Of a stretch of DNA of 64,000 nucleotides, positions 15,001 through 24,000 are shown in pieces. Source of the DNA: an uncultured Methanoregulaceae archaeon (GTDB lineage Archaea > Halobacteriota > Methanomicrobia > Methanomicrobiales > Methanospirillaceae); the NCBI GenBank assembly GCA_963717525.1, contig OY970343.1:1056001-1120000 (forward strand), read 5' to 3'. Position 1 is the first letter of the stretch, and every line of letters starts with the position of its first letter. Made by a program: the position numbers.

Positions 15001-18000
15001 GGCCACCATCGCTTCCGAGGACCATAAAAAGATGGAGCCGATTATGGAACTCCGCAAAAAGCCTGCCCCGGGCTTGACCGAATTCCAGGGCCGGATCCTG
15101 AGAAAAGACGGCATATACCGGCATGTCTATGTCAGGGTCACCGGGCTCCAGCATGGAGACGTCCTGTTCAATTTTATCATTATAACCGATATTACTGAGA
15201 TTCGTTCAAAGGATGCTGCACTTTTTGAGAGCGAGCAACGGTTCCGGATGATGGCAGAGAATATCCAGGACGGCCTTTTGATCATTGAAAACGATCAGCT
15301 TGTCTATGCCAACAGGCGCATCTCTGAAATTACGGGGTATACACCGGAGGAATTGCGGACGAAAAACACACAGGATCTGACAACCCCCGAGGAAAAAAAA
15401 CGGATGGAAGATCTCTATAAAAAATCCCTGGCCTGCACCGAACCTCCGGCAAACTTCCAGAGCTGGATACTCTGCAAAAATGGTGAAAGACGGTATGTAT
15501 ACGGGCATATTAACTCAGTGCGTCATGGGGAGACCACAAGCACCTATATTACGATGACAGATGTGACTGAGTTTGCACAGCGGGAACAGGAGTCTGCTAG
15601 ATCGTATCAGGACACTTGAAAATTGTGGTCCCTTCCGGGAGTCATAGTACCATCGCGTACGAGGAGATAAAACCCCAAAGAAATTTCCGCATATTCTCTC
15701 TCCGTCATCTATCCCTTTTCCGGGAAAAACAATGTTAATGGGGGGATTTTCAGCATATTCGTTTGCAACCTTTGTATTTATCGAGATGAATTTATATCGT
15801 TAAAAGGGTGCATTTATAATAATTATGTATGACCAATATGGCAAATCAATATATACAAAAAATCCCAATATGTACCAAGTTTTTCGATATAAGAGAGGAC
15901 TTGCATGATCACGAGCGATTCTGAACGATCATATGTCAATCACCTGCGATTCACGACCCGCTTAGTGCCGGGAATATTCAGGAGTTCCCTGCCGACAGCG
16001 GGCCTGATCTGTCTTGTACTTGTTCTCCTCGCGATATCGCCGGTGCTGGCCGGGACGCAGATCATGGCGGGGAGTCCTGCGCTGGGAGCGCACATCGCGG
16101 GCACGAACGAGTTCTCACCCGGGGACGACGTCAACCTGCAGGTCGTCATCGAGAACACGGGACTCAACCAGTTCATGATCGTGCAGTCAGGGATCATCAG
16201 CCCGACCGATCTCTCGAACACGGCAAAACAGCTGACCGCGACATTAAGCCCGGGGGATGCGCCGCTGGTGGTCAAGGCGGACCCGCAGATAGTCGGGTGA
16301 TTTACCGGCGAGCGCCAGTGCCACGGCCACGTTCCACGTCACGGTCAACCAGTATGCGGCGGCCAGGGACCTACCAGTTACCGGTGCGTACTGAACTACA
16401 CCTACCTGTACCAGGCCAACCAGGAAGGCAGCGAGACCCTGAACTACCAGTACAAATCTATCAACGAGACGATCAGCATCCCGATCACGATAACCCCCGA
16501 GGTGCAAATCGCGGTTCCCGATGTGGAACCCGAGAACCTGAACGCCGGGATCGAGGGATATGTCAATATGACTGTCGAAAACGTCGGGTCAGACGACGGC
16601 CGGAACGCGGTGATCCGTGTCCAGCAGAACGGCCAGAGCCCGATCACGCCCACCGAAGGGAGCGTCTATGTCGGAGACTTCCCGGTCGGTGCGGTGGTCA
16701 ACTGCACGTTCCGGGTCATGGTGGCAAGCGACGGCCCAGCAGAAGACCTACCCGCTCGACGTGCTGGTCTATTACAAGAATTACGAAGGGGACTACGTGA
16801 ACTCGCCCATCGAGACCGTCGGGGTCCCGGTCGGCCAGAAGGTGGACTTCAGCGTCACGCCCGCCAGCGCCTCAATTTCGCCGGGCGCCAACGCCGTGAT
16901 CACGGTCCAGTTCCAGAATACCGGCGGCACGACCGCCTATAACGCCGAGGCCCGGATCAGCGCCGTCGACCCGTTCACCAGCAACGATGATACGGCGTTC
17001 CTGGGCACGATGGCACCCGGGGATACCCGGACCGCCTCGTTTGCCGTCTCGGTCGACCCGGCTGCGACGGTAAAGGAATACGGCCTGGATTCCGAGGTGC
17101 TCTACCGCGATGCGCTGGATAACCAGTTCACCTCCGACCCCCTCAAGGTCAACGTGGACGTGGTCCCGGCACAGAGCGTCGTAACCCAGATCGGTCTCCC
17201 GGGGCTGATCGCCATCATCCTCGCCGTGCTGGCCATTGCAGGCTATGTGATCTACATCAAACGGTTCAAACCACGGTAACCTTTTTATCCCATGGTTTTG
17301 TCTGCCTGCAGTAAGGCAGAGCGCGATCACCCATGACAACAGGAAAAGAATGCCCCGTTCCGGATAACCGGTTAACCCCCCAAGAGACCAGAATCCCATG
17401 ATCGATCAGATCTTCAGTGCCCTCGCCCATACCGTCAACCGCCGGCCTAAACTGGTCGTTGGAATTATCGGTATGATTTTTATCATTGCCTTGGTCGGCA
17501 TGACCATGATCACCATGCAGACCGGCAATGACACCTACATGAACAAAAACTCGGCAGAAGGCATCGTCAATAACGAATATACCAACACGTTCAATGCAGA
17601 TGCCCTGATCCTGATCATCAAGACGAGCGACCCGCTGAGCCCTGCGGTGCTCACCTACATGGACCGGCTGGAAGCAGATATCCGGCAGCAGCAGCACGTT
17701 GCCGGCGCGTCAAGCGTCGTGGATATCCTCAAAAGCGAGAACAACGGTATCCTGCCCCAGTCAACGGGTGAGATCAGTGCACTGGTCAACCAGATGCCAT
17801 CCGCGGTCAAGGCCACAGCGGTGCCGTCCAACGTCCTGACCCTGATGGAGGTCCCCCTCGATCCCGGGCTCTCGGATGCCACCGAGGCCTCGGTCCTGAA
17901 CACCGTGCAGCTGGCAGTCGACCAGTCGAATCCGCCGGCGGGCGTGACCGTGGAGGTCTCCGGAACTCCTGCGTTCACAGCGCAGATGAAAGCGGCCATG

Positions 18001-21000: not shown

Positions 21001-24000
21001 GCTGCCGGCTACTATGTGGTTGTCGTGAGGAAGAAAAGATAAGGAGAGAGCATGATGGCATCTTTATTGACGATAGCAAAAAAGACGGGTGAGCGATAAT
21101 GACATCGACAGGCAGGAAGGTCACACTTCTCGTAATACTCCTCGCATGTCTCGCCGTCCCGGCGTTTGCCGGCACGAAGTATCTGGCCGGCAGCCCGAAC
21201 CTGACGGCGTATATAGCCGGGGCGAACCAGTATACGGCGGGCAGCGACATCCAGATCCCGGTAGTGATCAAAAACACCGGTATAAACACGAACTATGAGG
21301 TAGCGCCGAACATTGTCGATCTGGCGGATGTTCCGACTACGGCGAAATTTGTCACGGTCGCCATGGGTGCGGGGGATGCCCCGGTGGTGATCAAATCCGA
21401 TCCCCAGATGATTGGGGACATTGCGAGCCAGGCCCAGCAGACCGTGACGTTCTCCGCGAAGGTTAATGCCGATGCCGCGGGCGGCACGTATTATCTGCCG
21501 CTCAACATCAGTTACACCCAGTTCTCGAACGTCGACCAGTACGGCCTTGACACGTTCCGGTATTACTACGTGCCCGGCAACGTGACCATTACCGCCCCGC
21601 TGGTCATCAAGTCCGAGGTGATCCCGGAGGTTGTCTCAGCGACCTCCGGCCAGCTGGTTGCGGGTGCAAACGGCTACGTGAACCTGACCATCGCAAATAT
21701 CGGGTCGCTTGACGGCGCCAAAGCAACCGTGGAGATCCTCCAGGACGATGACAGCCCGGTCAGTCCGGTCGACAGCAGCGTGTATATCGGTGCATTTCCC
21801 GCAGGCAGCACGGTCTCCTGCCAGTACAAGGTATCCGTGGCAAAGGATGCGGAGAACAAGACCTATCCCATAGATGTTGTTGTGATGTACCAGAATGACG
21901 AGGGAGATTTCGTTCCGTCACAGACCCAGGTCGTAGGTGTGGACGTCGGCAATAAGGTTTCTTTTGCAATCCAGTCTCCCCCGGTCGAGATGAGCCCGGG
22001 CAGCAAGCGGACGATCCAGGTCGAATACCAGAACACCGGGGACTCCACGGTCTACAGCGCGGAGGCTCGTATCAGCGTGGTCGATCCGTTCACCAGTTCC
22101 TCCGATATCGCTTACCTTGGCGACCTCGCGCCGGGACAGTCCGCGGTGGCTTCCTATCAGATCAGCGTGGCAAGCGACGCGACTATCAAGGAATATGGCC
22201 TCGATTCCGAGATCCGGTACAATGATGCCCTCGACGATACCTACATCTCCGACCCGATGAAGATCTCTATCGACGTCAAAAACCTCTCCGGGATCCAGGG
22301 CATCGTCTCCAATCCCGTCTATATCTCCCTCATCGTCGCTGTGATCATCGGTATCATCTACACCCTAATTCATGCTAGGAGGAAACGATGAATGGGATCC
22401 GGTAACCGACGGATAATAAGGATATCAATGGTGCACGAGGCAAAAACCTGAATTGGCTCCCCTGCATCTCACCGTTGCAGGAAAACATCCCGGTAAACAT
22501 TTTTTTTGGGAAATGATACTGATGAATCCATGATCGGGTAATCTTTTTTAAAAGGCTTTCCGGGTATTTTTCCTATGCCGGTTTCCACCGGTCAGGCATC
22601 CTTTATGTGCTGCCGGCAGGATAGTATCGTGATGGAACCTGCACGGAAACTCCTGCGCAGCGTTGAGATCGACAACGGCACGTTCACGCTAACCCTCCAC
22701 CGCGAGGACTTCTCCACGCTCTACCCCGGGATGATCAGGTACGAACTCGCGGTCACCTCCGGGGGCCAGACCCTCGACATGTTCCGGACAAACACGTACC
22801 AGTACTCCGTGCCCGAGTCCCTTGCTGCAGAAACCGTTGCGCTCATGAAGGCGGACGAATGGGAGCACGAGCTCCGCGCCAGTCGTGAGGGTTTTCTGGC
22901 TGCCCACCATAGTGGAGCACGGCCGGGGCGGAAGGAAACACAGGAAACCGCTGATGTAGTCATCATCCAGGGAAGCCCGCGGCCGGATGGCAACTGCGGC
23001 ATCCTTGCCGCATGGGCCGCGGATGCGGCGCATACTGCCGGGAGGACTGCCCGGGTAATATACCCCCACGACCTCGACATCCACTGTTGTATCGGGTGCT
23101 ACCAGTGCTACAATACCGGCATCTGTATCTTCGATGATGACATGGCAGGTATTATCGACGCTATCCGTGGCGCATCACTCCTTGTGGTCTGCTCACCGGT
23201 CTATACCAATACCGTCCCCGGCAGCCTCAAGCTGCTCATTGACCGGACCCAGGCCTACCATGCAGAGCGGGCGCTCTCGGGAGGACGCCGGGGACAATCG
23301 GGGCTGCTTTTAGCGGTCGCCGGCCGCACGGGTGGAGGCAATTTCACCTGTGTGACCAGGGTTATTTCAGCATTTTTTGAAAATCTCGGTATCAAACCTG
23401 CCGGGCAGATCCTGCTCGATCGCGCTGATGCGATCCGGGATATCAGGACCCGGGAGGGCGCAGAACAGCAGGTAAAAGATGCAGTGCGCCAGTGTCTGAC
23501 CTGACCGTCACCGGGATCCTGTTATCCCGATGCGCCGGGCTTCGTTTGCCGGTGCGGGAGAAATCAGGATGAAGAGTCGTGCTATCCCCGGACCGTCCCC
23601 GCCGTGGGACCAAAAGGTTGGGCCTGCAAGTGTTTATCCACCTGCCCTGCCAACGGATAGCAGCAGCGTGATAAACCATGGTCACCCCCCAGTTCCTCCC
23701 GATTCCAAAAGCGATTCACGCGCTTGCCTGCGAGACCATCAGCCGCCGCGTCGACCGGCTCCCTTTCACCAGGAACGATGTCGAGATCACCGAAGGCATT
23801 GTGGGGATCACTCTCGAATGCCTGAACGCTGAAGTCATGCGGACACTCCCTTTAAAAACCGTCGCCCGGGGGACCGGCACCCACCCCGGCCTCGCCGAAT
23901 GCCTCAGTGAGCGCAGGGGAAGCGACCAGGGTGGGGTCGCACCGGTTATTGCCGAGGTCCTGGTAAACGCCGGCCTTGCTGAGCCGGCCGAAGTGCTCGA

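Follow-up and report, generated by a model that had tools for sequence, protein, structure and literature searches.

A soil methanogen has an HAE3 RND exporter gene flanked by three surface-protein genes: A (15905-17279), B (19750-21042) and C (21099-22391). Each of the three is nearly identical to a twin elsewhere on the chromosome. The best explanation is very probably that old duplicates have repeatedly undergone ectopic gene conversion with one another. When the window (the whole stretch of 64,000 nucleotides that was analysed) was compared with its own genome by self-BLAST, the twin of A matched at 98.6% over 1275 bp (contig 1510068-1511338), that of B at 98.1% over 1290 bp (contig 2110474-2111763) and that of C at 99.9% over 1255 bp (contig 873157-871903), the copies lying 0.2-1 Mb apart. 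Identity begins within the signal peptide and stops at the stop codon, and the flanks are unrelated. This bears out the genome-wide survey's note, which had described three exporter-operon genes with unlinked near-identical twins and divergent N-termini and flanks. The twin loci it gave are indeed unlinked, but the twin of A most likely starts at 1509954 and not at 1509765. Twin proteins differ by 1-4 residues, the diagnostic alleles being I256V in A, S304D, V306M, L397R and V404I in B, and V283I in C, and patchy differences are located in the third domain of B. A, B and C are mutually 41-46% identical and represent three subtypes of one COG1361 family, not the three surface-protein families claimed earlier. 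The exporter was correctly named an RND/MMPL protein: its TIGR00921 match covers residues 15-743 with 495.7 bits (cut-off 351.9), as expected of a full-length HAE3. The features are as follows.

13430..14119, minus strand: mechanosensitive-channel TM-helix protein (PF05552), synteny marker of site P (the cassette site)
14288..15619, plus strand: HTH-PAS regulator with PAS domains and a weak HTH, site P synteny marker, position kept in relatives
15905..17279, plus strand: gene A, COG1361-family surface protein, 456 aa if intact, from alignment to its twin
16019..17279, plus strand: homogenised A block, common to contig 1510068-1511327 (site a)
17280..17397, plus strand: A-HAE3 spacer, like the site-a A-HAE3 spacer of G208, G136 and G202 in a by-eye comparison
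17398..19716, plus strand: HAE3/MMPL-type RND exporter, 772 aa (TIGR00921 above cut-off, PF03176)
19750..21042, plus strand: gene B, COG1361-family surface protein, 430 aa, 98.1% identical to its twin
19764-21035, plus strand: homogenised B block, common to contig 2110491-2111763 (site b)
21099..22391, plus strand: gene C, COG1361-family surface protein, 430 aa, 99.9% identical to its twin
21133-22387, plus strand: homogenised C block, common to contig 873157-871903 (site k)

The mechanosensitive-channel gene adjoins the cassette in G005, G208, G212, G175, G092, G131 and G013. Site a is ordered LysE, MarR, ABC-2 exporter, A, HAE3 (in relatives) and amidase; self-BLAST found no second HAE3 copy in the window's genome. 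Site b consists of nrpRII, B and GPI and is by synteny a core locus order-wide, and at site k, C stands between a lipoprotein-like gene and ilvD.

Four surplus bases, one each at 16294, 16365, 16387 and 16730, break up the window's A as assembled, and one does the same in B's twin. Three of those in A are missing from four of four short-read runs, and that at 16294 from all three runs covering it; the four frameshifts are consensus errors. An extra base at 15593 in the HTH-PAS gene is likewise missing from four of four runs. Other assemblies of the species hold an intact 456-aa cassette A (protein P0178, 8 contigs) and intact 430-aa B twins. With consensus errors concentrated in A (4 in 1.27 kb, against 8 frame breaks across the 61.7 kb of partly overlapping ORFs that were compared), it might be suspected that assembly or polishing had put one sequence at both places, a suspicion that retains virtually no probability. 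It is refuted by short-read contigs from four studies, which collapse over exactly the twin blocks, break at the twin boundaries and continue into the twins' flanks: loose ends at 16019 and 17279 match the flanks of A's twin, and those for B lie at 19764 and 21035. As these contigs end in the twins' flanks, the twins are not an assembly artefact, and twins are also present in single-contig genomes free of frameshifts. Among the genomes compared, several are fragmented short-read assemblies or long-read assemblies rich in frameshifts. Where other assemblies mix alleles between loci, collapsed repeats may have produced chimeras; such mixes and B K287 variants were set aside as evidence of live conversion, since collapsed repeats and long-read errors can yield both. 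Differences in HAE3 between short reads and the window may be strain differences or errors.

The pattern was re-derived from the loci of 59 other genomes. Both loci of each twin pair are syntenic across species; nevertheless, the cores group by genome. Sites P and b are syntenic in the window's genome (G000), G005, G208, G212 and G175 and in the G004/G021 pair, and thus across five species or more, the exceptions at site P being G208, which is without HAE3, and G175, whose flanks are reordered. Fourfold-site distances of 0.00-0.06 in the tightest twin pairs, versus 0.42-0.54 between species, indicate that synonymous as well as non-synonymous sites are homogenised. For B in G000 and G005, identity is 98.1 and 98.2% within genomes versus 74% between same-locus orthologues, and fourfold-site distance is 0.026 within versus 0.51-0.54 between; neighbouring single-copy genes (0.34-0.57) are similar to the latter value. 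In G000 and G208, the distances within genomes are 0.005 and 0.000 versus 0.44 between for C, and 0.046 (inflated by assembly errors) and 0.004 versus 0.42-0.45 for A. G004 and G021, of another genus, gave 99.8 and 97.3% within versus 86-88% between. Twins are 97.9% identical in G276 (another family) and 85.6 and 88.9% in G013 (another genus), so that exchange is seen in two further genera and another family. Twin pairs of two cultured species are present in public records. In G004, G021 and G276, the PAS gene at the exporter-linked site is divergent, and this site is not necessarily orthologous to site P of the window.

Core DNA trees unite copies by genome, in broad agreement with the species tree. 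This grouping received bootstrap values of 94-100 for B in five species and for all three genes in G000 and G208, and paralogues are therefore monophyletic well above the value of at least 70 used by Wang and Chen. Ultrafast bootstrap for B cores by genome was 100 in G000, G005, G208 and G175, 99 in G195 and 94 in G212, and copies of G004, G021, G013 and G276 were joined by genome with SH-aLRT of 96-100. A single clade of dispersed B copies was rejected (p-AU 1.2e-51). After removal of recent twins, the site-b genes still did not form one clade (p-AU 0.00017, from a quick tree with 28 of 87 rows dropped, a test chosen after an earlier tree was seen); this suggests old exchanges, although most genomes have escaped.

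In contrast to the cores, signal-peptide starts and some membrane tails sort by locus. Within G208, G212, G175 and G195, likeness is 53-59% for B tails but 85-95% for B cores; the site-b tail type is present in the cassette of G000 and G005, and the cassette tail type at site b in G179. Gene ends grouping by locus contradict the idea that each species duplicated the genes recently and independently, or re-assembled its cassette, without conversion between standing copies. Such duplication is very unlikely also in view of identity that is patchy along the gene and of the order, flanks and related spacers kept at site P in G000, G005, G212 and G175, among which the cassette spacers have motifs in common, even though the cassette is mobile, with extra copies at other sites, a G195/G224 copy that groups with G202/G208 genes, and site-P flanks within site a of G064. 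Cumulatively, the results support two claims of the earlier note: 1) the loci predate the species split, yet copies group by genome, as seen from synteny, bootstrap values and fourfold distances; and 2) they evolve in concert by gene conversion, as argued by synteny, synonymous homogenisation, locus-sorted ends and the rejected single clade. Its word "ongoing" is consistent with the very low twin divergence but does not stand as a direct observation of conversion events.

Conversion is leaky and not general. Twins of at least 90% were found in 9 of 52 multi-locus genomes, and no pair reached 80% in 39 of the 52, the clade members G202 and G179 among them. The dispersed A and C are lost from G005, where B alone could be tested.

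We propose that the family consists of a core gene present order-wide at nrpRII-GPI (site b) plus exporter-linked copies of greater age. Trees and synteny suggest that site P's exporter operon turned into A-HAE3-B-C when it acquired copies of the genes at sites b and k, in the stem lineage of a single Methanoregula-like clade, and that A-HAE3 was copied to site a. Afterwards, homologous recombination would have overwritten one copy by the other; in pattern, this appears in patches, in both directions and in any sufficiently alike block. The enzymes are presumably of the RadA type, and the cell is possibly polyploid. Signal-peptide starts, which change fast, and in certain species also the membrane tail would leave the block and retain the locus history, copies drifting or arriving below about 78% identity would escape conversion, and spare copies would often be lost. 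A confinement to surface genes is contradicted by G212, where both loci carry the exporter and the HAE3 copies are homogenised too (fourfold distance 0.10). As the exporter gene is converted where two loci carry it, homology, not targeting, is the simplest driver. Neutral homology trapping alone leaves the re-seeding of whole ectodomains from core loci in multiple lineages unexplained.

Conversion could be real and also kept by selection, either because copies share an oligomer or exporter so that mismatch interferes or because a uniform surface is favoured, with slots refilled from core loci; we regard this as possible, though somewhat unlikely. The family was homogenised independently in four genera and two families, the common sequence in G013, G276 and the G000 clade belongs to the core-locus type, and dosage and paralog interference were argued by Wang and Chen for their cases (PMC6053082). 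Four other close duplicate pairs of G000 are not recurrent twins in five relatives (one copy each of cbiMNQO, one close copy of DUF4013, two phoU-like copies only in G208, and a thiC locus not found in the five), a comparison covering 4 of about 11 pairs. By contrast, the close relatives G005, G179 and G202 lose twins or let them diverge, and HAE3 and its spacer are exchanged as well. It is rather improbable that exporter-operon slots are refilled under selection with the genome's current core surface genes, even with paralogues below 70%, via conserved ectodomain-end motifs, A, B and C co-assembling as an export conduit through the S-layer in which copies must match. Antigenic variation, in which one expressed gene and silent donors would diversify a surface protein against viruses, is highly improbable. 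The proteins are predicted to lie at the surface and the third-domain differences in B are patchy, but each copy is intact and full-length and has a start and signal peptide of its own, copies number just two or three with no promoterless array, and the twins end up the same (to within 1-4 residues) instead of diverse. At the sequence level, there is no sign of the silent, promoterless or partial donors of an antigenic-variation cassette.

C possesses a signal peptide, three Ig-like domains (about 25-171, 172-285 and 286-396), a C-terminal helix and a basic tail. Its alignment-based AlphaFold2 model had a pLDDT of 93; a single-sequence model (pLDDT 38) was set aside. The alignment-based model points to membrane-anchored surface proteins with three Ig-like domains. 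From their neighbourhood, their likeliest role, at about even odds, is to serve HAE3 and ABC-2 exporters as extracellular accessory subunits. The earlier "S-layer" label holds as the COG1361 database name, carried by the nearest ESM Atlas clusters (0.99 for one that may be its own, 0.98 for the next) and by the public names of relatives; there are also NPCBM_assoc and CARDB hits. No solved S-layer protein was matched by sequence or fold: fold searches with C returned generic Ig-like matches only (best Z 10.9, rmsd 3.2, 104 aligned), the family profile gave two weak matches only among solved structures (E 0.03-0.05), and the NCBIfam PACE-CTERM S-layer model scored 35.5 bits (cut-off 110). A complex prediction with three copies of C residues 24-285 gave a median of 0.32 versus a mark of 0.42. 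Searches with C's patterns found no relatives in viral contigs, and a promoter and terminator scan, with bacterial-type models ill-suited to an archaeon, gave nothing above shuffles.

Recurrent concerted evolution in prokaryotes has been described for tuf, amoCAB/hao, psbD, mtmBC, mtbBC, glnB and histone genes (Wang and Chen 2018, PMC6053082). Seven archaeal genes stand in Table 2 of that survey, none of them a surface or COG1361 gene, and "S-layer" is absent from its main text. The present genes resemble those cases in the by-genome grouping of syntenic paralogues, homogenised synonymous sites and parallel conversion of several unit genes, but here each partner is a lone gene, at one of three separate loci, and conversion is leaky and re-seeded; the cases may also differ in long-lasting continuity (hundreds of millions of years). 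PMC4632066 describes mtrA-1/mtrA-2 conversion in Methanomicrobiales and Methanococcales, the former being the same order as here, with the soluble domain likewise homogenised and the membrane part staying distinct; there, however, the copies share one operon and serve methanogenesis, whereas ours lie 0.2-1 Mb apart and are patchy across species. Allelic conversion between chromosome copies of halophiles and methanogens, efficient and with long tracts, is plausible machinery, although the exchange here is between unlinked paralogues. No earlier report of gene conversion in COG1361/S-layer-domain archaeal genes was found in the open-licence literature; the present one is a new case in archaea of concerted evolution, a known process.

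It adds a surface-gene case to the seven archaeal recurrently homogenised genes of one systematic survey. One genus holds a natural series of fully homogenised, decaying, escaped and lost copies, which could give the identity threshold and tract length of archaeal ectopic conversion and set dosage or interference against neutral trapping; the twin pairs in cultured species make the case testable. The near-universal Methanomicrobiales COG1361 gene serves poorly as a marker, and short-read assemblies collapse it; its family provides a candidate uncharacterised accessory subunit of archaeal HAE3 exporters.

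The genes studied here are three COG1361-family surface-protein genes (A, B and C) placed around an HAE3 RND exporter, and by its named homologues the window is affiliated with Methanoregula/Methanoregulaceae. The source genome (G000) is a single, 87%-complete contig, of which the window covers bases 1056001-1120000. The A-HAE3-B-C cassette is laid out as follows.

15905-17279, gene A, first of the cassette
17398-19716, HAE3 exporter, with a TIGR00921 match exceeding the cut-off
19750-21042, gene B, after HAE3
21099-22391, gene C, last of the cassette

Pairwise identity among A, B and C is 41-46%. 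Self-BLAST revealed one unlinked twin per gene, matching A at 98.6% (1275 bp), B at 98.1% (1290 bp) and C at 99.9% (1255 bp), with identity spanning from signal peptide to stop codon. The near-identical distant twins claimed in the genome-wide survey's note are real. Contigs from four public short-read runs of four studies (4 of the 21 listed) were aligned to 14200-23600. Among the matches listed, loose contig ends occurred at 16019, 17279, 19764 and 21035 (at least three runs), 21133 (at least two) and 22387 (at least one), and the letters there run into the flanking sequence of the distant copies. In three runs the three surface-protein genes had about 1.5 to 2.6 times the contig depth of the exporter, depth not being a measure of copy number; the fourth run placed C inside a longer contig whose depth was uninformative. 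The four extra bases splitting the window's A are missing from the short-read contigs, and each of these bases resembles a merger of two alleles; in other assemblies cassette A (456 aa) and the B twins are intact. Genuine twin differences are few: A48V and I256V in A, at most four residues in B, and V283I in C. At 20164-20165, B codon 139 is unlike every short-read version. Many long contigs break the gene there and leave a 274-aa fragment; this break, which adjoins GTAC, is a recurring long-read error.

By synteny, members of the family in the compared genomes fall into four sites.

Site P, the window's own: MscS-type TM gene and PAS regulator
Site b: nrpRII-gene-GPI
Site k: lipoprotein-like gene-gene-ilvD
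Site a: LysE-MarR-ABC-2-gene-amidase

Within the order, 142 of 155 genomes had a match to the COG1361 family, and 11 of the 12 loci retrieved from other families lay at site b, which identifies site b as the core locus. Site a holds A with its own HAE3 in seven relatives, and this HAE3 is lost in G000. Dispersed A and C are missing from G005, and dispersed C from G179. In a species tree of seven genes flanking site b, G000 falls in a separate 12-genome clade. Independent assembly of the cassette is disfavoured because its spacer motifs are common to four species. In one locus (L035, G064) the site-P flanks, MscS-type gene and PAS regulator, sit within site a, and in another (L020, G136) a site-k type start of C is fused to genes downstream of site P; both are likely crossovers between twin loci. 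An additional A-HAE3-B-C cassette lies elsewhere in G224, G195 and G202 (L015, L016 and L011), and the second cassette of G195/G224 clusters with G202/G208 genes, which suggests transfer within the genus.

The claim of concerted evolution by gene conversion is right in the main: loci are syntenic, cores (the homogenised middle blocks) group by genome and ends by locus. For B, within-genome identity is 98.1 and 98.2% in G000 and G005, and same-site orthologues share 74%. The corresponding fourfold-site distance is 0.026 within against 0.51-0.54 between genomes, the latter comparable to that of flanking genes (0.34-0.57). G000/G208 quartets for C and A behaved in the same way. Older homogenisation of B is seen in G208, G212 and G175 (fourfold-site distance 0.16-0.30), and within-genome identity in G004 and G021, of another genus, is 99.8 and 97.3%, compared with 86-88% between the two. 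A control pair, G092/G203, groups by locus (59% within genome, 96-99% between). In core DNA trees copies of the same genome cluster, and a one-clade constraint on 11 site-b copies, chosen with the tree already seen, was rejected (p-AU 1.2e-51). The gene ends retain the history of their own locus: in four genomes the B copies are 85-95% alike in their cores and 53-59% in their tails, and at sites a, b and k N-termini and upstream bases are common across species. The cassettes of G000 and G005 carry site-b type tails, and site b of G179 has a tail of the cassette type, indicating exchange in both directions.

Among 48 genomes with at least two fetched loci, the best pair reaches at least 90% in nine (G000, G005, G208, G212, G195, G224, G004, G021 and G276), 80-90% in four (G013, G057, G124 and G175) and less in 35. 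Four more genomes lack any such pair, giving 9/52 at ≥90% and 13/52 at ≥80%; these 52 were picked for multiple matches, with only part of their copies fetched, and related genomes make the counts non-independent. Twins also get lost in short-read assemblies, and contigs of G195, G179 and G057 end inside these genes. In a quick tree, the sequence common to the twins belongs to the core-locus type for the G000 clade as well as for G013 and G276. Additional cassettes at 71-77% identity show no conversion. HAE3 copies of G212 are homogenised too (fourfold distance 0.10), and HAE3 of G000 is 83% identical to the G208 site-a copy versus 79% to the G005 site-P copy, indicating that exchange tracks homology.

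About 11 other close duplicate pairs exist in G000; four of them, checked in five relatives, gave no recurrent twins. A cbiMNQO cobalt transporter is present in two copies at 92% (contig 484713-487791 and 1741586-1744662) and in one copy in five relatives, and the genome has a second TATA-binding protein region at ~91% identity (contig 501559-503025 and 1292449-1293871). DUF4013 (95.9%; window 51488-52282), flavodoxin-like (97.1%; 61677-62718) and thiC-family (97.2%; contig 1120062-1121782, just past the window) genes have close unlinked copies. An insertion sequence at 38738-39763 (contig 1094738-1095763) has three identical copies in the genome. The right half of the window is low in GC and island-like in appearance. 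A 6.6-kb array of ~256-bp repeats, 76-84% alike (contig 1648873-1655540), is probably one large repetitive surface gene.

An AlphaFold2 model of the C protein (139 sequences, pLDDT 93) begins with a signal helix, followed by three beta-sandwich domains, the first bearing a long hairpin, and by a C-terminal helix with a basic tail. Generic Ig-like chains were all that fold searches returned. The label in the ESM Atlas and public records is COG1361 S-layer family, and one source gives the participation of COG1361 in membrane and S-layer synthesis as a suggestion (PMC10694973). As HAE3, ABC-2 exporters and MarR regulators adjoin family members, an exporter-accessory role is the best inference; no exporter lies beside the core site-b copy.

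The pattern is mosaic, recurrent and bidirectional, and is lost under ~78% identity. Homologous recombination would be the agent, and how the events followed one another in the stem of the clade is likewise inferred. Efficient conversion with long tracts is on record in polyploid archaea (PMC11276520, in excerpt), where it acts between chromosome copies, whereas A, B and C exchange between unlinked loci of one genome. Most of the data are accounted for by neutral trapping. Selection for matching subunits may yet play a part, since the same COG1361 family was re-seeded in four genera.

Searches of open-licence literature turned up no account of conversion between these twins. The archaeal list in the consulted portion of Wang and Chen holds seven genes, the COG1361 family not among them, and supplements may add families under the five-species cut (PMC6053082). 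Cultured Methanoregula boonei and Methanosphaerula palustris each have two copies in one 90% cluster in public records. The closest precedent is mtrA of the same order (PMC4632066). The COG1361-family twins fit recurrent concerted evolution by the criteria in that portion of Wang and Chen (PMC6053082), and the observation is a real, new case of already known concerted evolution.
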